A stretch of DNA of 64,000 nucleotides from positions 70,945 through 134,944 of the forward strand of contig JBAZKQ010000001.1 of the NCBI GenBank assembly GCA_041650715.1, written 5' to 3'. Position 1 is the stretch's first letter, and every line of letters starts with the position of its first letter. Below are positions 7,390-53,074 of the stretch, piece by piece. Below the pieces are notes generated by a model. The model did not search any database and had not been told where the DNA came from. It worked only from the letters and a program-made list of their open reading frames with translations. Made by a program: the position numbers and the translations under genes. The stretch comes from Patescibacteria group bacterium. Its GTDB lineage: Bacteria; Patescibacteriota; Patescibacteriia; Patescibacteriales; UBA12465.

Positions 7390-7418
7390 TTGACATTTTC
7401 TCTATTTTTTAATACTAT
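7390..7418 (+). promoter_or_regulatory. Sigma70-type promoter for tRNA-Gln
   Basis: TTGACA (7390-7395), 17-nt spacer, TACTAT (7413-7418), 20 nt upstream of the tRNA 5' end. Confidence 0.5.
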
Positions 7419-7437: not shown

Positions 7438-7508
7438 TCGGGGATCGTCTAATGGTAGGACTCCAGGTTTTGGTCCTGGCTATCGAGGTTCGAATCCTTG
7501 TCCCCGAG
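7438..7508 (+). tRNA. trnQ: tRNA-Gln (anticodon UUG)
   Basis: Acceptor TCGGGGA/TCCCCGA (U1:A72), D-arm GTCT-AATGGTA-GGAC, anticodon arm CCAGG-TTTTGGT-CCTGG, T-arm CGAGG-TTCGAAT-CCTTG, discriminator G. No encoded CCA. Confidence 0.9.
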
Positions 7509-7510
7509 CA

Positions 7511-7729
7511 TACGAAAAAAGAAGCAGCTTAAGCTGCTTCTTTTTTCGTATACGCCTCGCAGAGGCGCGGATTCGAACAGGGCAGAAGCGAGTCTTGAGC
7601 CGCTTTAGCAAAAGCGGCGATAAGGGGAGCGTCGAACGAAGCTCCGGGGGAGCTTCGGGCGCTGACCGCGACAACGAAGCGAATGAGCGACGGCGAATTC
7701 GCTGAGGCGGAAATCCTTGTCCCCGAGCA
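7511..7729 (+). repeat. Unit 1 (219 nt) of an unclassified structured repeat ending in a tRNA-Gln 3'-end mimic
   Basis: Starts with a perfect 40-nt palindrome. Contains hairpins GCCTC-GCA-GAGGC and GCCGCTTT-AGCA-AAAGCGGC and a variable 9-bp hairpin at 7637-7657. The last 18 nt are identical to the tRNA-Gln 3' end. Confidence 0.9.
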
Positions 7730-7948
7730 TACGAAAAAAGAAGCAGCTTAAGCTGCTTCTTTTTTCGTATACGCCTCGCAGAGGCGCGGATTCGAACAGG
7801 GCAGAAGCGAGTCTTGAGCCGCTTTAACAAAAGCGGCGAAAAGGGGAGCGTAGGACGATATGCCGGGGGCATATCGGACTCTGACCGCGACAACGAAGCG
7901 AATGAGCGACGGCGAATTCGCTGAGGCGGAAATCCTTGTCCCCGAGCA
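7730..7948 (+). repeat. Unit 2 (219 nt) of the same repeat, head-to-tail with unit 1
   Basis: Outside unit positions 123-151 it differs from unit 1 at only 2 positions (98 in a hairpin loop, and 111). The variable hairpin lies at 7856-7876. Confidence 0.9.
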
Positions 7949-7955
7949 AATAGAC

Positions 7956-7981
7956 AAAAATACCACTTTCGTGGTATTTTT
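7956..7981 (+). terminator. Intrinsic (bidirectional) terminator after unit 2
   Basis: A-tract, ATACCAC-TTTC-GTGGTAT, T-tract. The sequence is unrelated to the palindrome shared by the units. Confidence 0.6.
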
Positions 7982-8004
7982 GTTATATAAATAATTCTTA
8001 TATT

Positions 8005-8502
8005 ATGAAAAAAGCACTTATCGTAATTGACGTACAAAAAGGTTTTATAAATAAATCAACAACACCCGTTATTAAGAAAATAAAAAACTATATAGTAAAA
8101 AATATAAATAATTATGATCTTATAGTTTTCACCCAATACTTTAATAGAGAGGGTAGTAATTTTATTCGAAGTTTAAAATGGCGTGGTTTTATGAATAAGA
8201 ACCAAACAGATTTGGCTGATGAAATAAAGGGATTTACTAGTAAAAAAAACTTGTTCCCTAAATACACATATAGCAGCTTTGTCGATAATAAGCTTTTTAA
8301 TTTACTCAAAAAAAATAAAATAGATCAAGTTGAGTTGTCTGGTTTTGATACGGAGAACTGCGTTTTGACTTTCGCAAGAGATGCTTTTGATCGGGGGATG
8401 TCTGTAGTTGTATTAAAAAATCTTTCGGCCAGTCATTCTATGCCTAATTTGCACAAAGCAGCCCTTGAAATCATTAAACATAACATTGGGACAATTAAGT
8501 AA
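8005..8502 (+). CDS. Isochorismatase-family cysteine hydrolase (nicotinamidase-like)
   Basis: N-terminal KALIVIDVQKGF and the C-terminal GFDTENCVLTFARDAFDRG (catalytic Cys context) are family hallmarks. The gene is visibly more AT-rich than its flanks. Confidence 0.8.
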   Translation: MKKALIVIDVQKGFINKSTTPVIKKIKNYIVKNINNYDLIVFTQYFNREGSNFIRSLKWRGFMNKNQTDLADEIKGFTSKKNLFPKYTYSSFVDNKLFNLLKKNKIDQVELSGFDTENCVLTFARDAFDRGMSVVVLKNLSASHSMPNLHKAALEIIKHNIGTIK

Positions 8503-8505
8503 ATA

Positions 8506-8538
8506 GTTGCGTTCCAACTATATCCCAGTCCCCGAGCA
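8506..8538 (+). other. Degenerate copy of the tRNA-Gln 3' end (att-like remnant) immediately before unit 3
   Basis: GTTGCGTTCCAACTATATCCCAGTCCCCGAGCA: the last 11 nt are identical to the tRNA and unit 3' ends, and the upstream part resembles a decayed T-arm. Confidence 0.5.
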
Positions 8539-8755
8539 TACGAAAAAAGAAGCAGCTTAAGCTGCTTCTTTTTTCGTATACGCCTCGTAGAGGCGCGGAT
8601 TCGAACAGGGCAGAAGCGAGTCTTGAGCCGCTTTAGCAAAAGCGGCGAAAAGGGGAGCGTCGCTAAGCATCCGGGGGATGCTTGGCGCTGACCGCGACAA
8701 CGAAGCGAATGAGCGACGGCGAATTCGCTGAGGCGGAAATCCTTGTCCCCGAACA
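8539..8755 (+). repeat. Unit 3 (217 nt) of the structured repeat
   Basis: Same 40-nt palindrome and scaffold. Differences outside the variable window: position 50 (hairpin loop), position 111, and the third-from-last base (GAGCA>GAACA). The variable hairpin lies at 8664-8684. Confidence 0.9.
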
Positions 8756-8761
8756 TTGAAG

Positions 8762-8787
8762 AAAAATGAGCCGAAAGGCTCATTTTT
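8762..8787 (+). terminator. Intrinsic terminator after unit 3
   Basis: ATGAGCC-GAAA-GGCTCAT followed by TTTTTGTTGTTTT. Confidence 0.6.
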
Positions 8788-8817
8788 GTTGTTTTAAGAA
8801 TATGTTATAATGTAGCT

Positions 8818-9709: not shown

Positions 9710-10362
9710 ACAACATCCTTAATTCCATAAAACTGGATTATTTCATTCTCAGAGCCTCGGGTTTTAGAAGATTGGCGATAGTTGTGGTTGTCCCGCTCTT
9801 CGCCGGGGCTATGTCAAAAAATCCGCCGCTCGTATTGGGGCTCACTATGATGCTGTCTGGATTTATTATGAGCACTATTTTTGCCACGGTCGAAAAAAGT
9901 AATCTCAATAAGTTATATGGCATTTTGCCTATAAAAAAGAAACAAACTGTAATTGGGCGCTATTTGTTTGCGCTTATAGCCGGAGTAACGATTGCCGCTG
10001 CGGCCACGGTTTTAGCTTTTATCGTTTCGCTGATTATTAAAGTGCCTTTCGGTGGTCTTGAACTTACTGCTTGGCTCGCCGGTTCCTTTCTGGTTTTTTG
10101 CTTATTAGTTTCAATCCAGTTCCCGCTTTATTTCAGATATGATTTTTCAAAATTGGCGGCTTTAGCGAATCTGCCGTATATCGTTTTGGTTTTCAGTGTG
10201 TCCTTCTTAGTGAGGAAGCACCCAGAACTATTTACTCAAGTTGTTTCCTTTTTTGTCCGTAGCCCTTATATGCTTTGGATAGTGGGGACGGCCGGGGCAC
10301 TGATACTGCTTAGCGCCTCTACACTTGCTTCAATCGCGTTATATAATAAGAGGGAATTATAA
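9706..10362 (+). CDS. ABC-2-type permease (about 6 TM)
   Basis: ATGA start/stop overlap with the ATPase gene. Hydrophobic polytopic profile. Confidence 0.65.
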   Translation: MNNILNSIKLDYFILRASGFRRLAIVVVVPLFAGAMSKNPPLVLGLTMMLSGFIMSTIFATVEKSNLNKLYGILPIKKKQTVIGRYLFALIAGVTIAAAATVLAFIVSLIIKVPFGGLELTAWLAGSFLVFCLLVSIQFPLYFRYDFSKLAALANLPYIVLVFSVSFLVRKHPELFTQVVSFFVRSPYMLWIVGTAGALILLSASTLASIALYNKREL

Positions 10363-10375
10363 GCTGAGAGACTAA

Positions 10376-10957
10376 ATGGAATTCAAGGAACAAACACACG
10401 AAAAACAAACGTTTAAAAACATCATCTGTCCCGGGCAAGACCTGTCGGACAAGGATTTTTCGAATTGCAGTTTTGAAAAGTGCGATTTTAGTGAGGCTAA
10501 TTTTTCCGGTGCCTCTTTTATGGCTTGTACCTTTTTCGGTTGCAACCTAACTAATATAAAAGTAAATAACTGCAGTTTTCAGGGCGTGTTATTTGAGAAA
10601 TGTAAATTACTGGGCACGAGATTTACCTTAATAGATTCCTTGCTCATTGGCTGGGTTTTTAAAAATTGTGTTATTTCATTCTGCGATTTTAGCGATTTAA
10701 GCATTAAGGAAAGCAAATTTATAAACTGCGAAATAAAAGAGAGCGATTTTATAAATTCAAATTTAAGCGGGTCTGATTTTTCCGGTTCAAGCTTGCTTTT
10801 AAGTAAATTCCATAATACCAATTTAGAAAAAGTAAATTTTATCGGCGCCAGAGATTATTATCTTAATCCCGTAGACAATAAACTGAAAGGCGCGCGTTTT
10901 TCTTATCCCGAGGTCCTGTCCCTTTTGGACAACTTCGGGATTAAAGTTGAATTTTAA
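10376..10957 (+). CDS. Pentapeptide-repeat protein (Qnr/MfpA-like fold)
   Basis: Continuous A(D/N)LxX-type pentads, e.g. CSFEKCDFSEANFSGASFMACTFFGCNLTN. Confidence 0.85.
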   Translation: MEFKEQTHEKQTFKNIICPGQDLSDKDFSNCSFEKCDFSEANFSGASFMACTFFGCNLTNIKVNNCSFQGVLFEKCKLLGTRFTLIDSLLIGWVFKNCVISFCDFSDLSIKESKFINCEIKESDFINSNLSGSDFSGSSLLLSKFHNTNLEKVNFIGARDYYLNPVDNKLKGARFSYPEVLSLLDNFGIKVEF

Positions 10958-13019: not shown

Positions 13020-13847
13020 ATGGAAAATCTGGAAAAGCTCCTATCAGCTCTCCCGAAAAATAAATTAAGTCGTCGGGCTGATATAAAAATTAAATTTAGT
13101 TTGTATCGTCTTATTCTACAAAATAAACTGGCGCGCTTTTTTGATTTTTCCGCTTGGCGGCTGGTAACGATGCATAAAGCTTTGGCCTTTGCCGTGTTTG
13201 TATTTTTGGTCTTAGGAACAACTTCGTTTTATGCCTATGCGAGCGGCGATGTTCTCCCCGGGAGTCAACTATATCCGGTAAAGATTGCGCTGGAAAAGAT
13301 TGAGCAGACAATTACCGTCACCAATTCGGCAAAAATTAGTAATTTACAGAAAGTTTCTGAGCGTCGCCTGAGCGAGGCAGTTAGTTTGAGTGAAAAAGAG
13401 CAGGCCACTATTCAGGAAAGCCAGCGCATTAATGAAGATATAAAGAATAATATTGCCATCGGGGTGAATAATCATGAGGCCATCGCTAAGCATATTAATA
13501 ATCTTAGTAATAGCCCGAAAGCGCAGTCATTGATTAATGAAGCCGAAACCAATGATCAAAAAGAAATGGATTATTTGGATCAAATCGCCGCCTTTGCCGC
13601 GGAAAGTAATAATGAGGATATTTTGCAAAATGTCCAGGCGGCTAAAGAGTCGATTGGCAATCAGAAATATAATGAAGATAATAAGCGGAGACAGAACCAA
13701 GAAAAGATGGACACAGAAGAAATAAATACGGAAAAAGTGGACGAAGAAAAAGAAATAGAGCCCCAAGGCGGGGTGGCGTCTACTACGAACGATGTTAATA
13801 ATAAAAACGAAATGCGGCAGAGAGGAAGAGACAGGGGTAATGATTAA
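13020..13847 (+). CDS. DUF5667-type membrane protein, putative anti-sigma partner
   Basis: Adjacent to the sigma gene (2-nt gap). Single TM, then PGSQLYPVKIALEKIE typical of DUF5667. Charged low-complexity tail. Confidence 0.6.
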   Translation: MENLEKLLSALPKNKLSRRADIKIKFSLYRLILQNKLARFFDFSAWRLVTMHKALAFAVFVFLVLGTTSFYAYASGDVLPGSQLYPVKIALEKIEQTITVTNSAKISNLQKVSERRLSEAVSLSEKEQATIQESQRINEDIKNNIAIGVNNHEAIAKHINNLSNSPKAQSLINEAETNDQKEMDYLDQIAAFAAESNNEDILQNVQAAKESIGNQKYNEDNKRRQNQEKMDTEEINTEKVDEEKEIEPQGGVASTTNDVNNKNEMRQRGRDRGND

Positions 13848-13876
13848 ATTAATATTGGAGATAATTTAAGGATATT

Positions 13877-13907
13877 TAAAAATATGCCACCAACTGGCGT
13901 ATTTTTT
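13877..13907 (+). terminator. Intrinsic terminator
   Basis: AAAAATATGCCA-CCAAC-TGGCGTATTTTTT. Confidence 0.5.
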
Positions 13908-14024
13908 ATTCACAGGCATAAAAATGTCATTTTTCCCCATTTTTTGCTATAATTAAATAAAGAATAGCAAATATATTTATTTAGCTATTGAAATAAAATT
14001 TGTTTTTGTAGTAATTAGATTTAT

Positions 14025-17000
14025 ATGAACAATTTTGGTGAACAATTTATTGACCCAAAAGACCTCAAGGCGAACGTCATCGATCAGCCTGAAAATAAGG
14101 AGGAGCTTAATATTACTGTTGATAATAAGAATGAATTAGAAAATGATATAAGTTCCGGCTATTTAAATGATCTTAATTCTCAAATTAATCTTGAGGAGCA
14201 TGTTATAGAAGAGTTTTCAAAGACTAAAGATGATAAATTACGAGAATCTCTACGCGATCTGAGAAGATTGGGCGAAGAATCTTTAAAGACGCTATCTTCG
14301 AAAATTGTAGAAATATTTAATTCCAGTAAATTAGTTGTTAAGTTGCGTGACATTTACATTGAGAAACGGAGCATAAGCATTCATAAAGAATTGAGTGTTG
14401 AAAATAAACTGCCAAAAGTAGATGATTATGATAGTTTTCTGAAATTAATCCAATCTGATTTTTGGGGAAGTTCTGCTAACGCTGCGGATGCCACTTTTAG
14501 AGCCAATACCGCTCTATATTCGATAGCCAAGCGTTTTCCTGAAAAAAGAAAGGATATCTTAGAAATTTGGCCCGAATTATTTAGCCGGGAAATAAGTTGT
14601 AATACTGATTTGTTCGATCGGCAGATTAGGGATATTAAGGAAAATGAATATAATGTTATTAGCGGTAATGATGAAAAAATTAATTATATAAAATCGTGTG
14701 ATGATTTTACAGCTTTAACGTGTTTATTAAATCTTAACTTCAGTTCTAAAGATATTGATGTTTCCGAAGAAACCATCAAGCGTCTCGATTCGTTAATTTC
14801 AAATCATCCCAACGTTAAAGAACTACCAGGCGGTATTACTGACCAACTTTTTAATGCTTGCACGGAAAAACCTGAAGAAATAATGTCCGATGCTCGTAGG
14901 ACAGACTTCCTTTTTAATTTATGGATTAATAAAATAAGTATTTATTCGAATAAATTAACAAGCTCATCAATTATTCCGATTTTCGCCGAAAGACTCCAAA
15001 CTTGTTCTAAGGAAGAAACAGATAAACTTCTCAAAATGTTATTAAGAAATTGGAACAATTCTTATGATAGCGGTGATTTTAATTTGTTAATTGAGTTCCT
15101 ACCGCTTGATAAAAGCCATGTTAAATTAATCAATAAAAAGAAAAATTTAGTTGATGGTGAGAACTCAGATAAACTCCTGTCTTTAAACAGGGATAAAGTT
15201 TTGGGTAAAAATATCGAGAAACGGGAATATGAGGTATTACTTACCGCCGCCGAATCTTTGCGTGGTGGCAACGAAGTGATCTTTTTAAGTAATCTTATTG
15301 CCAATTATCCGGATAAAGTTTTGGGTATTAATGAAACCGAACTTGAGAACATACTTGACGTCTTGCTGAAGTACCGTCAGGAACGTTTTGATATTGATAC
15401 TTTGCACTGCTTAACAGAACTAATGAGTCGTTGCTATTGGCCTGACAATCTCAAGAAAAAGGTTTACGGTGCTAATAGCATTAGCGCCAATACTTTGAAT
15501 AAAATCGTCACCGGTTTAGATGATCCGACGTTCGATTGGTTAAGAAATAATCAATTATTATTTAGTCAATTACAAATAGATTTTCATAAAAAAGCACAAA
15601 ATAATGATTTAAGACATTATTTTTATAATGTTTTAGACGGTAAGCAGCAGTCAGATAATTTGGGTGACTTAATCAAATCGTATGGTCGCTCCGGTGCCGG
15701 TTTTGATTTTGAGGAGCTAAGGGCTTTGTTTTTAGAGAATCGCATTGATAAAAAATATATTCAATATTTTATTGACCAGATTGGTAATGAGCAAATTTTA
15801 ACGGGTTTAAATAGTGAACTTATTAATTCTGTTGATAAGACATGGTTTTTAGAATCGGCTCTCAAGTATGGAAAAGCAAATAATGCTACGGAAATACTAA
15901 GGATGCTAATGCTTGGCGGGTCGATTGATAATCAGGAAAAAAGACAAGACATTCTAAATTCATTATCCGATAATATATTACTTAAGTGTGATAATTATGA
16001 TTCAAAAAAAACAGCTTATGGGTATGGGAACGAGGTAGCCGGCGTCTCGGCACAGTTATTTAATGAGGATTTGTCAGATATTTTAAGCAGAGAAGAGCTT
16101 CTTGGTCTCAGAAAAAAAATGATGCTTGGCGCCCTCGGTTTTAGCAATTCGGAAAACGCAACCCTGCTTACTATCACTAATCGTGAAAATACCGCTAAAG
16201 CTTTTCCTGAAGAGCAAGAAAGAGCTGATTATTTGTATAAACTATTTGAGAAATTAATAAGCGATCAAGATAACCGGCAGTATTTCTCTGTCATGTCTTT
16301 CTATTTTGGAAAACCAGAATTATTTAGTGCCTTAGATAATTCTCGCAAACAGGAGTTGGAAAATAAGATATTTAATTTTAATATAACCGAGCGGAGCGAC
16401 TCTTTTCTGGGCTTATTGCCCGAGATGGATGCCAAACAAAAGGAACGTTTTATAAGCTGTTTTGAAAATAATTTTGAATTAAAAGAGCTTACTACAAACG
16501 TATTTGATTCTTTTTGTAGGAAATTGACTTATTTCAGTGAGTTCTCAAGTAATAAAGAAGTTTATACTCGGATTTACTTAAAATTATTAAATGACCCCGG
16601 TCTTAAATCGGAAGCAGCCAGCGTTCTTTTTGATAAAGAAATCGTCTTCAGTGATAGTAAAATTAAAGACGCTTTCTTCAATAATATTATTCGTTGGCCC
16701 GGTATAGACGGAACAAATATTCTTGAATCGTTGGCCTCAATGAAGGGTAATGATAAAAGTTTTTTATTAAGTAATGAGGAAGTAAAAAAAATAAGTACCT
16801 CGGTTATGGAAAACCGCGGATTATCACCAAAATTCTGGAAAGGATATTTGCAGTCGCCCAAAAAAAATCCCACCTTCTACCTTGATGAAAATATTTTTAG
16901 AAAAGGCATTAATAATATTGGCAATGATTGTTTCCGAGAGAGCGGTGAAGAGATAGTTGCTTTCATTAAATCACTTTCCGCGTCCGGGTTTGAGTTTACC

Positions 17001-18983
17001 GGTGATGATGCGCAAGCAATAGTTAGAAAAGCTTTTGAAAATACGCGTAAAATAGATAATCTTGAGGCTTTTTATAAGTATGATCAAGTTTTGATGGAAA
17101 ATATTTTAACTGAAAAAAATTATTTTAGCTATTCGCTCGATGCTAACATTAGTTATTCAAAAGAATATAATTATAAATTATTAGATAATATTGTAAATAA
17201 TAATTTTTCGCTCAATGATGTTAATAAGCTCTTAGATTACCTCAAGAAAAATGGTAATTTGGAAATGGTGAATGAGTTTAAAAAAAGATTGTCCAAGCTT
17301 GACAAAGAGCAAGCAACGGCAGGGCGCATGGCTTTGCTTAATGCCGATTTTCTTAGTGTGGTGGAATCAAAAAAATTCTATCAGGAAATAACTTCGTCGT
17401 CTTCGGACAATGCTCGCATTCAAATTATGAATTCGATCGATGTTATTGGCTCCATGCTCAGTAATCGTAATAACGTCGAGCAATTGGGACAATTTTTAAA
17501 TAAACCAAGAGCCGAAGACATTTTAAATTTAAAAGACATTTCTGATTTTATTGAAAAATATAATAAAGAAAACAAGGGCCGGAGCGTGGCGGTGATGCTT
17601 TTTGCAAGAGAATATCTTCCGAGTAGACCCCTTGAGGAAGTTATTGAAAGAGTGGCTTCTAATTTAAGAAAATATGGCGAAATAATTGAGAATAATTCTT
17701 ATAAAAACGTGCCGGAAGGGTTTAGGGCGTCAATCGGGATGGAATACGAAATTACTTCCTCAACCGCTAAGGGGTATGAGGAATTAACTTCACAAACAAG
17801 CTTAAAAGAAGACATCGCCAGAATAAGTCAGGCCGCCAGAATAGGCTCGGGGAAAGATGCTGTTCATGAAATTGCGACCAAGCCGACTGATAATCCCTAT
17901 TTAATGCTTTTAGAAATGAAGCTTCTTCATGATATTGAATATATAGATTTAAATTTTAATCGTTCGGAAAATTATCAGAAGGGAGCGCGCGGTTTCCATT
18001 TGACTATTGGCGGGGAAAAGGGTTTGACGGTTGACTCGGAAACAAATTTTTTACAAAATGCTTTGCTGGCTGCCTCTTGGGGCGGAATTCAGTCTGGAGA
18101 AACCGGCCATAAAGTTAATGGCGGACGCGGAGTGTCGTTAAGAGGGAGAGACGCCGAGCAATCTAATAATATTGCTTTTTTTGGGAAAAAAACTAATTCA
18201 GTAGAATTGCGTTCTTTATCCATAGACAAGGAGGAAACTTTGCAAAGAGCGGTTACTACCGCCTTCAACGGAGCGATCGCGATCCAGGCTTTTAAAGAAT
18301 GCTTTCCCAGGGGTTCTTCGGAGGTCCTAAATCTATTAGAGACGACGGACGGGCAAAGGAGTATCGACGAGGCTATAGACTCTAAGGATAAAAAAATTGC
18401 CGATTTAGCCAGATTATGGCTCGATTTAATTAGCCAGGTAAATTCTTCAGTCAAACGACATAATGAATCGTTTATAGATAATGAGATGTTTGGCTATTTA
18501 GATGATAAAGACGTTTGGGTCGATGCGGCCGATTTCGGCGGTGAATATAACAAAAAACGTTTTGATTCAATAATCGCCAATATCGATCCGACCCTAAGTC
18601 TGAAGGAATATGCCAAGACCACGGAAATAAATCGAGAAGAATTCTTTAAAAGTTTTAGCGTTGAGTTGTCCGATAAGCTTATTAAGATAAATAATCTCTA
18701 TCTTAAACCGGGAACAGTGTCTGCCGATGATAAAGATAAAAAAACTAATGTTTTTAAAGGTGATCACGCTAACGCAATTTCGATGTTAGAAACCACTAAG
18801 TTAGGCAATTCTGGAATTGAATATTATGATGAGGATTTTTTAGATAAGACAGTTTTTGATACGGCCGGGGAAAAAAGAAAAGGTTATTATTATCTTCAAG
18901 GGGGTAGCGAATTAATGCTTACTCACGCCATACAAAAATCTCTGATTGACTTTAATTCAAAAATAGAAAAAATGCTTAATTAA
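14025..18983 (+). CDS. Giant ORFan (1652 aa), predicted soluble helical-repeat protein with a C-terminal GS-like carboxylate-amine ligase (amidoligase) motif set
   Basis: Uninterrupted 4.96-kb ORF with no N-terminal signal peptide or TM segment. AT-rich relative to neighbours. Motifs: GMEYE (aa 1238-1242), HEIATKP (1281-1287), GFHLTIGG (1323-1330), VELRS (1393-1397). Confidence 0.8.
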   Translation: MNNFGEQFIDPKDLKANVIDQPENKEELNITVDNKNELENDISSGYLNDLNSQINLEEHVIEEFSKTKDDKLRESLRDLRRLGEESLKTLSSKIVEIFNSSKLVVKLRDIYIEKRSISIHKELSVENKLPKVDDYDSFLKLIQSDFWGSSANAADATFRANTALYSIAKRFPEKRKDILEIWPELFSREISCNTDLFDRQIRDIKENEYNVISGNDEKINYIKSCDDFTALTCLLNLNFSSKDIDVSEETIKRLDSLISNHPNVKELPGGITDQLFNACTEKPEEIMSDARRTDFLFNLWINKISIYSNKLTSSSIIPIFAERLQTCSKEETDKLLKMLLRNWNNSYDSGDFNLLIEFLPLDKSHVKLINKKKNLVDGENSDKLLSLNRDKVLGKNIEKREYEVLLTAAESLRGGNEVIFLSNLIANYPDKVLGINETELENILDVLLKYRQERFDIDTLHCLTELMSRCYWPDNLKKKVYGANSISANTLNKIVTGLDDPTFDWLRNNQLLFSQLQIDFHKKAQNNDLRHYFYNVLDGKQQSDNLGDLIKSYGRSGAGFDFEELRALFLENRIDKKYIQYFIDQIGNEQILTGLNSELINSVDKTWFLESALKYGKANNATEILRMLMLGGSIDNQEKRQDILNSLSDNILLKCDNYDSKKTAYGYGNEVAGVSAQLFNEDLSDILSREELLGLRKKMMLGALGFSNSENATLLTITNRENTAKAFPEEQERADYLYKLFEKLISDQDNRQYFSVMSFYFGKPELFSALDNSRKQELENKIFNFNITERSDSFLGLLPEMDAKQKERFISCFENNFELKELTTNVFDSFCRKLTYFSEFSSNKEVYTRIYLKLLNDPGLKSEAASVLFDKEIVFSDSKIKDAFFNNIIRWPGIDGTNILESLASMKGNDKSFLLSNEEVKKISTSVMENRGLSPKFWKGYLQSPKKNPTFYLDENIFRKGINNIGNDCFRESGEEIVAFIKSLSASGFEFTGDDAQAIVRKAFENTRKIDNLEAFYKYDQVLMENILTEKNYFSYSLDANISYSKEYNYKLLDNIVNNNFSLNDVNKLLDYLKKNGNLEMVNEFKKRLSKLDKEQATAGRMALLNADFLSVVESKKFYQEITSSSSDNARIQIMNSIDVIGSMLSNRNNVEQLGQFLNKPRAEDILNLKDISDFIEKYNKENKGRSVAVMLFAREYLPSRPLEEVIERVASNLRKYGEIIENNSYKNVPEGFRASIGMEYEITSSTAKGYEELTSQTSLKEDIARISQAARIGSGKDAVHEIATKPTDNPYLMLLEMKLLHDIEYIDLNFNRSENYQKGARGFHLTIGGEKGLTVDSETNFLQNALLAASWGGIQSGETGHKVNGGRGVSLRGRDAEQSNNIAFFGKKTNSVELRSLSIDKEETLQRAVTTAFNGAIAIQAFKECFPRGSSEVLNLLETTDGQRSIDEAIDSKDKKIADLARLWLDLISQVNSSVKRHNESFIDNEMFGYLDDKDVWVDAADFGGEYNKKRFDSIIANIDPTLSLKEYAKTTEINREEFFKSFSVELSDKLIKINNLYLKPGTVSADDKDKKTNVFKGDHANAISMLETTKLGNSGIEYYDEDFLDKTVFDTAGEKRKGYYYLQGGSELMLTHAIQKSLIDFNSKIEKMLN

Positions 18984-34506: not shown

Positions 34507-36519
34507 ATGTTTACTGGGCTTAAAATTGAAGAGTGGCTAAAGGTTTTAATTTTTGCTGGTCTCCTCAGCCTGGTCGTTATTATTTTTTCTCAAAAAATTG
34601 AATTTACCGCTGTCGATTTAGGGCGCCATCTCGAAAACGGAAAAATCGTCTGGCAAGACAGCCGCGTCCTCTTCACAAATTTTTACTCTTATACCGAGCC
34701 TCAGACCGCATTTATTAATCACCATTGGCTAAGCGGTGTAATTTATTTCCTGGTCTATTCTCTCGGCGGATTCAAGGCGCTCACCGCCCTAAATATTATT
34801 TTAATCCTCGCGGCTTTTATTTTGGCATTTCGACTTGCTCAAAAAAAAGCCGGTTTTTATTTGCCCGCTCTGATTTCAATTCCCGTTATTTTTATACTGA
34901 GCGAACGCGTCGAGGTGCGTCCGGAAATATTTAGTTATTTTTTTATTTTTCTGATTTGGTTCATTATCGACCGGGTTAGTGCAAGCAAAAATTATCGTCG
35001 CGCTTATTGGCTCGTCCCGCTTTTTGTGCTTTGGGCCAATATGCACATCTATTTTTTTATCGGCCTGGCTTTAATCGGAATTAAAGCGGCCGCGGAATTT
35101 TTGCCGGTTTTTATCGAGACGGCCGGTGTCTTTAGGGGACGTTTAGCGGCGGCTTGGCAGGCGTCAAAAGTCTGGTTTATAAATTTGGGCGTTTTATTTT
35201 TCGCTTGTCTTCTTAATCCGAATTTTATCCGCGGTTTGCTCTATCCTTTTAATATTTTTAATAATTATGCCTACGAAATCGCGGAAAATAAAACTATTTT
35301 CTATTTGCAGCATTTAATGATCGACCCTAATATTGCGATTTTTAAAGCTTTGCTTCTGTTATTATTGTTTAGTTCCGGCACTTATTTTTTCTTTCGTAAG
35401 AAGATTCCATATTTTGAACTACTAAGCGCTTTATTTTTTTCGGCACTCGCCCTATTTGCGATTCGCAACCTGGCTATTTTCGGTCTGGCTGCCTTAGTTT
35501 TATTAAGCGCTAACTTAGTCCAGCCCTTGGCTTATCTAAAAGCTAATGTTTCATACCTCGACGCCGGCCGTCGTCAGTTCGTCCGCTATATTTTAGCCGG
35601 CCTGCTTTTATTTATAATACTTATCGGCACTATTTATCTTCTTATTGATGCGCGCCGTACGAATATATTTATGCGCAACCCACTCGGTTGGGGCTTATCG
35701 CAGGGCAGTGACGATTCGATAAATTTTTTCCGAGAAAATAATTTACAGGGCCCGATATTCAATAATTATGATTTAGGCAGCGCTTTAATTTTCTGGCTTT
35801 ACGGCCAAGAGAAAGTTTTTGTCGATAACCGGCCGGAAGCCTATAGCAATGATTTCTTTAATAATATTTACCGGCCGATGCAACTCGATGAAAATACTTG
35901 GCTTAAGGAAAGCGCGGCTTATAAATTTAAGACAGTTTATTTTTCCCACACTGATTTTACTCCCTGGGCCCAAAAGTTTTTAAGCACAACCATTGATAGC
36001 GACTGGGCCCTGGTTTATTTTGACAGGTATACGGTTATTTATTTAAGCCGTAAAAATAATGAAGCCGGGCTTATCGCAAAATTAGCCCTGAGCAATTCCG
36101 CAGTTAGAGAGAGGCTGCGTAGCTTGGCCGCCAATTCAGGCGTGGCCGATCGTTTACGCCTGGCCTCATTTGCAGTCACGATTAATCAACCCGACCTAGC
36201 CGAAGAGATTTATCAAGATATCTTGTTTAACAGTCCAGATAATGGCCAGGTTTTAAGCTCCCTGGCTTCGATATACGCGGCCAGTACGGATAGAGCGACC
36301 GAGTTTAAAGCTTTGGCGTATTATGAGCGAGCGTTAAGAGCCGGTTTTGTTTTGCCCGGTATATATAACCAAATCGGCTTAGTTGATTGGCGGCTGGGCG
36401 ACTACGTGAGCGCGGAAAGCAGCTGGCACCAAGCGCTGAAGCTGGATCGTAAAAACGAATCGGCTCTATATTATTTGAATCAAATTGAACAACTACGTTT
36501 ACAAGGCGAATTGAAATAG
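34507..36519 (+). CDS. Polytopic membrane protein with C-terminal TPR repeats; GT-C-type glycosyltransferase-like
   Basis: About 12 TM helices followed by a soluble domain and TPR-like ALAYYERALRAG...WHQALKLDRKNESALYYL. Convergent with a polyprenol-phosphate sugar GT2. Confidence 0.45.
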   Translation: MFTGLKIEEWLKVLIFAGLLSLVVIIFSQKIEFTAVDLGRHLENGKIVWQDSRVLFTNFYSYTEPQTAFINHHWLSGVIYFLVYSLGGFKALTALNIILILAAFILAFRLAQKKAGFYLPALISIPVIFILSERVEVRPEIFSYFFIFLIWFIIDRVSASKNYRRAYWLVPLFVLWANMHIYFFIGLALIGIKAAAEFLPVFIETAGVFRGRLAAAWQASKVWFINLGVLFFACLLNPNFIRGLLYPFNIFNNYAYEIAENKTIFYLQHLMIDPNIAIFKALLLLLLFSSGTYFFFRKKIPYFELLSALFFSALALFAIRNLAIFGLAALVLLSANLVQPLAYLKANVSYLDAGRRQFVRYILAGLLLFIILIGTIYLLIDARRTNIFMRNPLGWGLSQGSDDSINFFRENNLQGPIFNNYDLGSALIFWLYGQEKVFVDNRPEAYSNDFFNNIYRPMQLDENTWLKESAAYKFKTVYFSHTDFTPWAQKFLSTTIDSDWALVYFDRYTVIYLSRKNNEAGLIAKLALSNSAVRERLRSLAANSGVADRLRLASFAVTINQPDLAEEIYQDILFNSPDNGQVLSSLASIYAASTDRATEFKALAYYERALRAGFVLPGIYNQIGLVDWRLGDYVSAESSWHQALKLDRKNESALYYLNQIEQLRLQGELK

Positions 36520-50821: not shown

Positions 50822-53074
50822 TTATTTGAGCAATTCAGGCTTAGATACATAGGGGCATACTTTATTAAATAATTCCCAAAGATCCTTAAGGGTAAGGAAG
50901 AATTCTTTAATCTTTTTTCCCGTCCAGGTAATTCCTTGCCAGCAGTAGGCGAATGGCCAAAGCATTATCTTAAATACATTCGTAATATTTTCCCAGATTA
51001 TATTTTTTTTAATCTCACGGGAGTTAATTACATCTTTGGCATCTTCAACCGATAAACCGGCCACAATCTCTCCGATAAGCTCCATTCGATAATCACGATT
51101 ATTTCCAGCTTTTATTATTTTTCCCATATTCTCGGATAAGAGATCTATTTTTTCCTGGCTCCCCTTTTTTATTAAAAGTTCAGAAAAATTAACACGTAAA
51201 TCCCTTTCATTCGGAAAAAAGAAGAAAGCCAGATAATCAATCTGACAAATTATTTCCCAGCGCGCTTGGTTTTCCAGTTGACCGAGCCATTGGCTGTTGA
51301 GAAACAGAGAAATGTGGCTCTTATATCCCAGGTTCCCCATTTTTCGGTCCATCTTGTAAAAAAAGTCAAAGGCTTGTTCTCGTTTCTCAATATTGCTTGC
51401 GTTGGCGATATTCGACATCAGAAGCGAGAAGCTGAAGATTAGAATTACAAGGGGAAAAAATAGAATAGGCAAGACACCAAAAGCGGTGAAATCAAACTCT
51501 CCAATTTTCCAAAACAGAATTCCAAAGACGATGACAGTTAACACCAGAAAGCCCTTGGCCAGGCGATTTAGTATTTTTTCAAACTTGATGAATTTACTCT
51601 CATTATTTAGGAACAAGTTAACCAGGTAAACAAATAGGAGACTGAAGAGGAGGGTAAAGATAAACCAGTTTGATAACAGGAGGTTGTCCGTGTACCATGT
51701 CCAGAATGACTTCGCCACGCTAACGATAAATTTAACTATCGGTAGGGTGAGATATTTATCGAAGAGAACAATTATTGGCGCCCCGATAGAAAGATGCAGA
51801 AGAAATCTGACAAAAGAGGGGATATCGTCATAATCGAACAGGCCATCGTTGTTGTTACTTTCTGGAGCCACACAAGTGACAAAGAAGAAAATGTAAAACA
51901 GTGCGCTGAGCATAAACATTGTAGTGAGCAGAAATCCGACTTGTGCGGCCAGGAAAGTAAAGATAGAGACCAGTAACAAAACGAGGCCTCCAATTATGGC
52001 AATGGCAACAACTAATGCAATGGGTGTCAAAATAATTTTAATAAGTATTTTGAGTGACTTACTTTTTTTGCCCCAGAGTATTAACAGATTTACAATAAGG
52101 CGAACTATTGCGACGTAGGCCCAGGAAATCATCGGCAACGCGAAGGCGGCCGGTATTAGGGCTAAAGCAGAAAAGCCGCTTTGTTGAATAACGCTCGCGG
52201 TACTGATAAGGGCAATAGGAGACACTATCCAGAACAGCGTTTGCATTATTAATGTCATCCAGAAGCCAGGACAGATATGATCTTTTAAGATCACTTCTTT
52301 TTTAGGGAAGAAAGCATAATTAGATCTTACCGTCCGGTAAAGCCACCAATATTTTCCGTCCTCTTGGTTCACGATAAAGTCATTAATGTGTTCCTTTATG
52401 GAGAGGAAGCGGGTAAAACTTTTGTTGGTGATTTTGCTGTCGTTGTTGCTACCTTTTGGATAGAGGCTAAAACCAAAGTCGAGAGAGAGCAGGCTGAAGG
52501 CCCAAGCACCCTTAGTTTGATTTCGTTTTTCTGCACAATAATCTTCCTGCAAGAGTTTTGTTACGGTTACGGTTCCGAACAAAATTTTTAGGCGGTCACG
52601 CAAACTTTTTTTGAATACGCGAGAGACTACTGGTTCGCCTGTTTGCGGAAACAGATCATTGTAATTGTCTTTAATGGCTTGAATCTGTTGAGTTGTGAGG
52701 CGACGCAAAAAGGATTCGTAAGACATCATATCAATGTTTTCACGCCAGATTAGCTTGCGCCAAACGCTCGTTGGTAATGATTCAACCATGATGATAATTT
52801 GGATTAGCGGATTCTTTTGTGCATAATTTTCCTTTAAGAAAATGAGGAAAAATTCGCGTAGCTCTTTCGGGGTGAGTGACATTTTATTAATTAAAGTGTC
52901 GTGGATGTAATCCCAAAAAATTAACGCGTGAGCCATTTGTACTTTTCCCCCCACATCGGATAACGTGTTGTAATAAGGAAAAATAATAAGACCTTCATCG
53001 GGATCGAGGTAAGTCTTGATTTTACTTGTCAGAAATTTATAAAATTTCTTGACTTCAATCGGTTTTTGTTTCAT
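50822..53074 (-). CDS. 750-aa ORFan: soluble N-terminal domain, ~10 TM core, soluble C-terminal domain
   Basis: Long clean ORF with no motif I recognise. Divergent from the hrcA operon. Confidence 0.75.
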   Translation of the reverse strand: MKQKPIEVKKFYKFLTSKIKTYLDPDEGLIIFPYYNTLSDVGGKVQMAHALIFWDYIHDTLINKMSLTPKELREFFLIFLKENYAQKNPLIQIIIMVESLPTSVWRKLIWRENIDMMSYESFLRRLTTQQIQAIKDNYNDLFPQTGEPVVSRVFKKSLRDRLKILFGTVTVTKLLQEDYCAEKRNQTKGAWAFSLLSLDFGFSLYPKGSNNDSKITNKSFTRFLSIKEHINDFIVNQEDGKYWWLYRTVRSNYAFFPKKEVILKDHICPGFWMTLIMQTLFWIVSPIALISTASVIQQSGFSALALIPAAFALPMISWAYVAIVRLIVNLLILWGKKSKSLKILIKIILTPIALVVAIAIIGGLVLLLVSIFTFLAAQVGFLLTTMFMLSALFYIFFFVTCVAPESNNNDGLFDYDDIPSFVRFLLHLSIGAPIIVLFDKYLTLPIVKFIVSVAKSFWTWYTDNLLLSNWFIFTLLFSLLFVYLVNLFLNNESKFIKFEKILNRLAKGFLVLTVIVFGILFWKIGEFDFTAFGVLPILFFPLVILIFSFSLLMSNIANASNIEKREQAFDFFYKMDRKMGNLGYKSHISLFLNSQWLGQLENQARWEIICQIDYLAFFFFPNERDLRVNFSELLIKKGSQEKIDLLSENMGKIIKAGNNRDYRMELIGEIVAGLSVEDAKDVINSREIKKNIIWENITNVFKIMLWPFAYCWQGITWTGKKIKEFFLTLKDLWELFNKVCPYVSKPELLK

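Follow-up and report, generated by a model that had tools for sequence, protein, structure and literature searches.

A structure-preserving variable helix in a candidate folded non-coding element of a tRNA-Gln-anchored cassette array in Patescibacteria

The attC sites of integrons are single imperfect palindromes with boxes in the order R''-L''...L'-R' (RYYYAAC/GTTRRRY) and extrahelical bases, and an integron carries an adjacent intI tyrosine recombinase gene. The tycheposon islands of Prochlorococcus are anchored on tRNA genes and built by successive site-specific integrations of elements that are kilobases long and carry integrases and replication genes (bioRxiv 10.1101/2020.12.28.424599). 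Here we analyse 64,000 nucleotides (nt) from a Patescibacteria group bacterium (contig JBAZKQ010000001.1, positions 70,945 to 134,944, forward strand), called the window below, in which a 219-nt non-coding unit occurs three times behind a tRNA-Gln gene. An earlier note on this DNA had singled out one hairpin of the unit, here termed H5, as hypervariable with intact pairing, and had taken it for a specificity or address module, or for a protein-recognised hairpin in the spirit of attC or REP elements. In our reading, to which we assign a probability of roughly 0.55, H5 is one helix of a conserved folded non-coding element of about 160 nt, with a mid-stem that is free in sequence and constrained in structure. 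The surrounding array appears to resemble both an integron and a tRNA-anchored island, yet it lacks the attC anatomy, the intI gene and the integrase and replication module that define them.

As in an integron, promoter-poor single-gene cassettes stand head to tail in one orientation, each ending in a short conserved site of recombination type; non-coding cassettes, sites that are very similar within a chromosomal array and one hairpin that is kept in structure and variable in sequence are further points of likeness. The present array differs in being anchored on a tRNA gene rather than on attI and intI, in that every cassette starts with a terminator hairpin, and in boundary sites that imitate the 3' end of tRNA-Gln (...TCCCCGAGCA) and end in CCCGAGCA, not in GTTRRRY. 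Unlike attC, the unit is predicted to be a multi-branched fold with three or more independent hairpins, and searches for tyrosine recombinases such as intI (phmmer with XerD; Pfam tables) came back empty for the window and 23 loci of relatives. With tycheposons the locus shares an island beside a tRNA gene, partial tRNA copies flanking the elements (five core copies in the window) and strain-variable content, as well as the pattern in which newer elements push older ones outward and cargo-only remnants persist (bioRxiv 10.1101/2020.12.28.424599). The repeating item here, however, is 219 bp long, non-coding and RNA-like in its fold; the cassettes carry one gene each, and neither units nor open reading frame (ORF) cassettes contain an integrase or replication module. 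The unit also recalls REP and REPIN elements and the miniature elements that depend on RAYT or IS200/IS605 enzymes, which are short, multi-copy, non-coding hairpins with compensatory stem change; its insertion is likewise strand-specific, 3' of a fixed pentanucleotide and without obvious target duplication. It differs from them in having no GTAG head, no paired inverted REP and no similar end hairpins, and in being confined to tRNA-Gln 3' ends instead of dispersed intergenically. Among the loci examined, a Y1_Tnp domain was seen in one related array only (L050; L numbers denote loci of relatives). Because the unit sits in a cassette array, the comparison with attC and REP elements drawn in the earlier note is apt in spirit.

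The tRNA-Gln gene of the window, preceded by a promoter-like TTGACA-17-TACTAT (7390-7418; promoter scan), ends in AATCCTTGTCCCCGAGCA (7493-7510), and this is the sequence repeated at each unit boundary. Four further copies lie downstream, at 7712, 7931, 8521 (two mismatches) and 8738 (one mismatch), against a chance expectation of 0.35. Each unit consists of a terminator hairpin, a GC-rich body of about 160 nt (61% GC versus roughly 40% for the genome) and a copy of the tRNA-Gln 3' end, hereafter the core; the terminator-like part is a perfect 42-nt palindrome (ATACGAAAAAAGAAGCAGCTT/AAGCTGCTTCTTTTTTCGTAT). Units 1 and 2 adjoin in tandem, and unit 3, with a single change in its core copy (GAACA), is separated from unit 2 by a single-gene cassette (coordinates in the table below).

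The three hairpins read CGAAGCTCC-GGG-GGAGCTTCG at 7637-7657, CGATATGCC-GGG-GGCATATCG at 7856-7876 and TAAGCATCC-GGG-GGATGCTTG at 8664-8684, just as first reported, and the clustering of differences in them is real. Of the 219 positions, 14 distinguish units 1 and 2, and 12 of these fall in the 36-nt hairpin 7628-7663 (binomial P = 2.6e-8); the hairpin likewise takes 13 of the 18 differences between units 1 and 3 (P = 2e-7) and 17 of the 22 between units 2 and 3 (P = 5e-10). Between units 1 and 2, four consecutive base pairs are swapped with pairing intact, exactly as the earlier note described, and a further compensatory swap, C-G>A-U, accounts for the two altered bases that flank the stem in unit 2 (7852, C>A; 7880, G>T). 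Unit 3 had been said to carry only Watson-Crick swaps, which is incorrect: T8664·G8684 is a wobble. Its stem lies in a different register, with 12 continuous pairs (8661-8672 with 8676-8687). The bases flanking the stem do vary between copies, but the separate internal loops that had been drawn from them are unnecessary, as one shared architecture fits all three: AG/CU, a 3-nt CGU bulge and a helix of 12-13 pairs closed by CC-GGG-GG; in units 1 and 2, pairs 3-4 of this helix form a tandem purine-purine mismatch.

Relatives were gathered by exact-pattern scans of genome and metagenome collections, which yielded the 23 loci, all named ones being Patescibacteria, including Candidatus Falkowbacteria; more loci were added by walking from homologues of FtsX, whose gene lies immediately upstream of this tRNA-Gln. 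Because the scans needed exact matches of 22-28 nt, close relatives are over-represented, a bias that the FtsX walk partly corrects. A covariance model, R1, built on 17 copies, gave 35 matches in the first set and three more later. The body is about 85-97% identical in nucleotides between genomes with FtsX proteins 62-85% identical, and this conservation above that of FtsX points to strong purifying selection or horizontal movement.

In the model-based alignment 95.9% of cells were paired, compared with 85.2% in shuffles and 30-44% with slid partners, 25 pairs had changed on both sides, and the observed covariation was reached by 0 of 500 shuffles. Such an alignment leans towards structure, and a structure-blind MAFFT alignment was used as a check. 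The variable helix of H5 is 98.2% paired and seven of its nine pairs covary, two of them with four pair types each; in the structure-blind alignment, covariation persists at six of the nine. Column entropy is 1.25 bits in the variable arms of H5, 0.07 at the tip, 0.13 in H6 and 0.18 in H2. Structure-preserving change of the stem, as first proposed from three copies, is thus borne out by covariation quantified over 30+ homologues and far beyond chance.

About ten H5 stem alleles occur in 31 copies (A to H in the table), and one aberrant copy has no tip (L018). Two series of alleles pass through G·U pairs. In one, CGACTTGCC leads through CGGCTTGCC, which has the G·U, to CGGCCTGC (D > D' > E; A-U > G·U > G-C); in the other, U-A (L010) is linked through U·G (window unit 3) to C-G (L042). 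Such series are the classic sign of paired substitutions that arose independently while selection acted on the pairing of one strand with itself; the length of the helix is kept as well. The earlier note had named single palindromic insertion events as an origin that would overturn its claim, and the G·U intermediates show stepwise paired changes instead. Alleles A, B, D, E and G could be parsed as a kink-turn, a reading that was rejected: it is not conserved, alleles C, F and H have no G·A pairs, window unit 1 has A·G/A·G, and covariation (C-G>A-U in unit 2, L008 and allele F; G-C>A-U in L012a) favours a parse in which two Watson-Crick pairs follow the bulge before the G·A pairs begin.

L008 carries the whole H5 segment of unit 2 unchanged, two bases separate the H5 of unit 1 from that of L013 and two that of unit 3 from L010, and the flanks of the unit 3 allele also recur in L042. 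By contrast with these shared alleles, terminator and H1 are identical in the three window units and different between genomes, which makes the units mosaics. Either the 5' part is locally homogenised or H5 modules are exchanged via their invariant flanks; the alleles are apparently old, with no sign of hypermutation in situ. Hypervariable in this case stands for old polymorphism shared between genomes and redistributed by mosaic recombination; the alleles were not made in place. Several arrays (L002/L006, L020, L022, L029 and L011) carry the same allele in both units, so that keeping alleles distinct is no rule.

Beyond H5, RNAalifold and a hand-refined structure gave helices H1 to H6. The plus strand of the unit folds better than shuffles (z = -3.6), the minus strand not clearly so (z = -1.7), and divergent members fold well too (z = -3.6 and -2.3). 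H1, the helix that directly follows the terminator, covaries and exists in two entirely different versions, CGCCUC/GAGGCG and UUUGC/GCAAA. H2 is GGAUUCG/CGAGUCU, and H4 pairs GGGG with the CCCC of the core. In H3 the AGCA loop is conserved, seven of eight pairs covary, and the stem is fully replaced in the divergent copies L029 and L012b. The inner helix of H6 (H6b) is replaced by an unrelated GGCGC/GCGCC in L042 and absent in L029. The first 10 nt of each body (GGATTCGAAC; 7569-7578, 7788-7797 and 8597-8606) are the exact reverse complement of 7486-7495, the T-loop and 3' T-stem of tRNA-Gln (GTTCGAATCC). Pairing of this motif with the tRNA is conceivable, as is a closing helix with the 3' AAUCC of the same body; covariation for the latter (NNGGAUU/AAUCCNN, body start with core) is partial, with G-C in about nine lineages and five mismatched. 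Some unit copies may be decaying: of the tandem pair in L022, the second unit (552-703) is shortened by 8 nt, with loss of the 3' end of H3 together with the linker (GGCGAAAA).

On this evidence the body would be a folded single strand, probably RNA read in the direction of the tRNA. Single-strand folding is suggested by independently covarying helices, high GC in an AT-rich genome, the better fold of the plus strand and an excess of G·U over A·C, and we infer RNA in preference to single-stranded DNA. The base of H5, its 3-nt bulge, its length of 12-13 pairs and its CC-GGG-GG tip would be constrained, the five to seven middle pairs needing only to pair and drifting by compensatory changes via G·U intermediates. 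H5 would then act as a rigid arm that holds the conserved tip at a fixed distance from bulge and base, and the mid-stem as a neutral spacer. Old alleles would have been joined to the homogenised 5' part (core, terminator and H1) by recombination or gene conversion, and, judging from the arrangement, the cassette would be or would once have been mobile through a recombinase encoded elsewhere. Peripheral helices of structured RNAs offer a parallel, with a conserved core, one helix free in sequence and fixed in pairing and length, and a conserved loop cap. A helix that is constrained in pairing and length only appears to be the simpler reading, as it would account for compensatory swaps, G·U intermediates and length conservation. 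The earlier note's contention that this is not neutral decay of a dead repeat also holds: pairing is selected, the tip is conserved and the scaffold is highly conserved between genomes, at about 90% nucleotide identity.

Several observations weigh against this interpretation. Although G·U outnumbers A·C by 64 to 15 in total, the count for minority pair types is only 24 to 15 (p = 0.2). The most divergent members (L029, L012b and L044) do not keep H2, H4 and H6, which makes the whole-molecule fold uncertain and leaves only H1, H3 and H5 secure. The promoter scan found no sigma-70-type promoter before any body, and a strong terminator stands immediately upstream of it. Many copies are related or near-duplicate, so that counts overstate independent events. 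A neutral spacer alone leaves three alleles in three near-identical neighbouring units unaccounted for. Finally, no recombinase was found in about 400 kb of context examined, apart from those of unrelated elements.

The cassette organization extends to relatives. In the loci examined, units always lie downstream of tRNA-Gln (UUG or CUG), in its orientation, either directly behind the gene or behind a tRNA-end-like site, and cassette junctions always fall directly after ...GAGCA; tRNA-Gln core copies are also repeated downstream in 20+ of these loci. Single-ORF cassette arrays that are integron-like but tRNA-anchored occur at L013 (1-3501, minus strand), in the window (7949-8538) and at L029 (9255-10130). 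The clearest is L013, with four successive single-ORF cassettes. Its cassettes start with a hairpin (TTGACAAAA-stem-TTTTTGTTGTATA) followed by an extended -10-like motif and end in a site of roughly 30 nt, GGTTCCAACTATATCCCAG-TCCCCGAGCA, that imitates the 3' end of tRNA-Gln but contains five inserted nucleotides. Elsewhere a second site family, TTAGCCAC...TTCNAA-N16-GAGCA, plays the same boundary role. The termB hairpin that opens the window cassette also follows a unit in L006 and L019 and an ORF-cassette site in L013, and different ORFs stand behind it in the window, L006 and L013. In L026 tRNA-Gln is joined directly to a terminator (GATTGACAAAAATATACC...), and in L029 a unit lies exactly between the tRNA end and the same terminator, a comparison subject to the caveat that the L026 tRNA has a different acceptor stem.

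Synteny upstream of tRNA-Gln (ftsE, ftsX and a penicillin-binding protein gene) is conserved and downstream synteny is lost. Some close relatives have no unit at the locus, and many metagenome contigs end inside units, as expected of multi-copy repeats. The array is apparently a strain-variable island of head-to-tail cassettes, and the unit a putative accessory cassette-like insertion in an integration hotspot, as indicated by the junctions, the lost downstream synteny, the unit-free relatives and other elements at the same site. Pfam gene tables showed no recombinase in the window or adjoining any unit, and phmmer with XerD and gamma-delta resolvase (approximate query sequences) had no match in the window or the 23 loci. 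Serine recombinase, Y1 and IS110 genes were found only in arrays of other relatives, without units. In two close relatives, L036 (7006-8664) and L038 (7007-8620), both without the unit, a gene for a large serine recombinase (Resolvase+Recombinase+Zn_ribbon; minus strand) lies directly against the tRNA-Gln terminator; the small ORFs and rolling-circle Rep gene (PF23343; L038 9140-9970) that follow it mark a different mobile element in the same flank. L050 carries a Y1 (IS200/IS605-type) transposase gene and an IS110-family transposase gene (10299-10631 and 13186-14139) in a tRNA-Gln-anchored array, the Y1 gene being short and flanked by its own unrelated GTAG-containing hairpins. In L001 (5904-5950), L017 (about 9900-9945) and L034 (about 2075-2091) the tRNA-end copy of the unit is interrupted between TCCCTG and TCCCC by a perfect palindrome, CCTGCCTGCC/GGCAGGCAGG, and the same type of insertion occurs in two body lineages. 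The unit core matches the resident tRNA-Gln variant in 12 of 13 genomes; the sole mismatch is L012 (1139-1426), where a unit beside tRNA-Gln(UUG) carries the tRNA-Gln(CUG)-type core (TCCCTATCCCC) of other genomes.

Could the variable stem instead set each copy's partner, its alleles kept by diversifying or balancing selection? Three alleles in three otherwise near-identical units of one genome would fit, as would alleles that are discrete, old and common to several genomes together with their flanks, the pattern of balanced specificity types, and a variable middle between conserved tip and base. We nevertheless regard this idea as improbable, and nothing supports it positively. The earlier note had proposed to look for matches to the stem arms in other sequences; in the 64-kb window such matches occur at chance level, with no excess. 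Allele identity is uncorrelated with neighbouring cassettes, upstream junction type or tRNA-Gln isoacceptor, five multi-unit arrays hold identical alleles, base-paired stems read sequence poorly for RNA-RNA addressing, and no candidate partner gene accompanies the unit in the Pfam gene tables of the loci. Still less room is left for a decaying repeat, chance palindromes or a coding repeat on the minus strand, to which we give next to no chance. A 185-aa minus-strand ORF (7480-8037) does span units 1 and 2, as would be expected of GC-rich sequence without stop codons in a repeat of 219, a multiple of three; its translation is of low complexity and has no Pfam match, the frame includes the reverse-complemented tRNA end and terminators, and coding leaves the paired substitutions unexplained. 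Decay is at odds with conservation across genomes above that of neighbouring protein genes, and chance is excluded by the clustering and pairing statistics.

The alternatives that take mobility as their starting point draw on the array itself. The body or H5 might be a DNA recombination signal, recognised as single-stranded DNA or cruciform by the cassette-moving enzyme in the manner of attC or of HUH/Y1 hairpins, with palindromy that may be partly kept by intrastrand template switching. The position of the unit at cassette boundaries of an integron-like array and the lack of a promoter before the body speak for this, as do the Y1 transposase, IS110 and rolling-circle Rep genes of such arrays and the palindrome in the cores of L001, L017 and L034, which shows that palindrome-generating events happen here; DNA hairpins, moreover, tolerate G·T too. 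We consider it doubtful all the same, because the unit is not one long imperfect palindrome with R and L boxes as in attC, its left- and right-end hairpins are unrelated, unlike IS200/IS605 ends, and no matching enzyme lies nearby. High GC and several covarying helices in an AT-rich genome are the signature of structured RNA, and ORF cassettes of the same arrays use short Xa or Xb sites and have no body, so that the body is unnecessary for cassette junctions. Alternatively, the body could be the scaffold of a guide-type RNA, with H5 as a peripheral stem, whose 3' terminal 16-20 nt guide a trans-encoded protein to tRNA-Gln for homing. The layout of scaffold, tRNA-Gln-identical 3' segment and terminator would suit such a guide, and the site is an insertion hotspot. 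The 3' segment also tracks the resident tRNA-Gln variant as described above, though the crossover is placed after GAGCA, and the upstream bases differ (TTCGAA in the tRNA, CGGAAA in the unit) as a self/non-self motif would. Against it, the gene tables show no TnpB, IscB, Cas or bridge-type recombinase in the window or beside any unit, Rfam gives no match to HEARO or another guide family, and the core identity is equally explained by recombination or gene conversion with the tRNA; a guide is very improbable to us. In a broader version that we hold decidedly improbable, the unit would be an RNA-centred mobile or homing element whose RNA, as guide or substrate, seeds the tRNA-anchored array, and the H5 alleles would be compatibility groups of RNA and enzyme. 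The helix held in structure and released in sequence remains the reading that we prefer.

Known RNA families were compared with the unit as well. Its 3' end resembles transfer-messenger RNA (tmRNA) and viral tRNA-like structures in having a T-arm-like hairpin, UGAGG-CGGAAAU-CCUUG, and an acceptor 3' strand, and its 5' motif GGAUUCGAAC is reminiscent of the GGAUUCGAC segment of tmRNA. A tRNA-like domain (GGGGAgCGUC with the T-arm mimic) was nonetheless rejected: acceptor-like GGGG/CCCC pairing is lost from L029 and L012b, and changes in the core are not matched by the 5' strand of the T-arm. ARAGORN and Rfam find only the genuine tRNA-Gln, and only the 3' 18-20 nt of the unit are tRNA-identical. 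There is no conserved tag frame for a tmRNA, candidate frames ending differently in the window, L029 and L042. A small ORF on the plus strand (MSDGEFAEAEILVPE...) that stays in frame in both the window and L029 was rejected because L042 lacks it and its middle is unconserved. TnpB reRNA, IscB omega RNA and CAST homing crRNA were set aside, with no effector in the window or loci and no match to a scaffold family. At gathering thresholds, Rfam 15 returns only true tRNAs in the window, and at permissive E-values the unit region and a divergent locus give sub-threshold chance matches, mostly to the terminator hairpin. No match to the unit was found in phage and plasmid collections (blastn) or in viral contigs (pattern scan), and a literature search on tRNA-like repeats or cassettes of the candidate phyla radiation found nothing relevant. 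The unit is, as far as its sequence tells, an undescribed folded non-coding cassette that belongs to none of the RNA families compared here.

More distant bodies, GC- and purine-rich and without the CC-GGG-GG helix, lie at L005 (2437-2610) and L044 (9127-9289 and 10497-10580). What they have in common is confined to the ends (5' GGATTCGAACAGG; 3' GGCGGAAATCC plus the tRNA end) and to recurring GAGCGA motifs, with different hairpins inside, and the second of the two L044 copies is a mosaic with an internal deletion; these bodies point to a wider superfamily with conserved termini and a variable interior. Elsewhere in the window, three large ORFs (14025-18983, 34507-36519 and 50822-53074; 1652, 670 and 750 aa) have no Pfam domain or TPR repeats only.

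Table 1. Features of the tRNA-Gln locus and stem alleles of H5 (window coordinates; copy numbers refer to the window and relatives)
Feature	Positions	Strand	Details
tRNA-Gln(UUG) gene	7438-7509	+	ARAGORN; Rfam RF00005, 57.7 bits
Unit 1	7511-7729	+	219 nt; repeat search and alignment; covariance model R1, 198.8 bits
Unit 1 parts	7510-7551; 7553-7567; 7569-7711; 7712-7729		terminator palindrome; H1; body; tRNA-Gln 3'-end copy
H3	7599-7618 (unit 1), 7818-7837, 8627-8646	+	GCCGCTTT-AGCA-AAAGCGGC
H5, unit 1 (allele B)	7628-7663	+	sequence, minimum-free-energy fold, allele table, pair counts
H5, unit 1, base	7628-7634 with 7660-7663		A7628-T7663, G7629-C7662; CGT bulge 7630-7632; C7633-G7661, G7634-C7660
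H5, unit 1, stem	7635-7659		tandem A·G 7635/7636 with 7659/7658; variable stem 7637-7645 with 7649-7657; loop GGG 7646-7648
H6 region	7666-7710 (unit 1)	+	CCGC...AGCGAAT-GAGCGACGGCGA-ATTCGCT...GCGG; purine-rich, nearly invariant
Unit 2	7730-7948	+	terminator 7729-7770; body 7788-7930; core copy 7931-7948; R1 193.9 bits
H5, unit 2 (allele A)	7847-7882	+	layout as in unit 1; A7852-T7880 for C-G; tandem G·A/A·G; variable stem 7856-7864/7868-7876
Single-gene cassette between units 2 and 3	7949-8538	+	termB hairpin, ORF, Xb site
termB hairpin	about 7949-7990	+	opens the cassette after unit 2
Isochorismatase-family ORF	8005-8502	+	Pfam PF00857, 2e-26
Xb, degenerate tRNA-Gln-3'-end-like site	8509-8538	+	GCGTTCCAACTATATCCCAGTCCCCGAGCA
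Unit 3	8539-8755	+	terminator 8538-8579; body 8597-8737; core copy 8738-8755; R1 183 bits
H5, unit 3 (allele C)	8656-8689	+	AG/CT base; CGT bulge 8658-8660; 12 pairs 8661-8672/8676-8687; loop GGG 8673-8675
Terminator-like hairpin after last core copy	8762-8787	+	array end
Extended -10-like motif	8805-8813	+	TGTTATAAT; precedes ABC-transporter genes
Allele A			5' arm CGATATGCC; 11 copies
Allele B			5' arm CGAAGCTCC; 2 copies
Allele C			CGCTAAGCATCC, or CGCCAAGCATCC in L042; 4 copies (window unit 3, L010, L012a, L042)
Allele D			CGACTTGCC; 6 copies, plus CGGCTTGCC with G·U (L003)
Allele E			CGGCCTGC; 1 copy
Allele F			AGTTAAAGCTCC; 2 copies
Allele G			CGAATATCC; 1 copy
Allele H			CGATAAGCTTCC; 4 copies

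Candidate-phyla bacteria have tiny genomes, and to our knowledge little has been described of their mobile elements or non-coding RNAs. The locus is a compact tRNA-anchored array of single-gene cassettes, punctuated by a conserved, covarying non-coding fold that matches no described RNA family. For the stem, the analysis sets a real signal, the structure-preserving variation of one helix, apart from the account of it as an address label. If the fold were only a passenger small RNA, it would still be a well-supported new structured-RNA candidate with clean covariation. If it were an RNA needed for insertion at the tRNA end, streamlined genomes would have in it a new means of acquiring and reshuffling their accessory genes.

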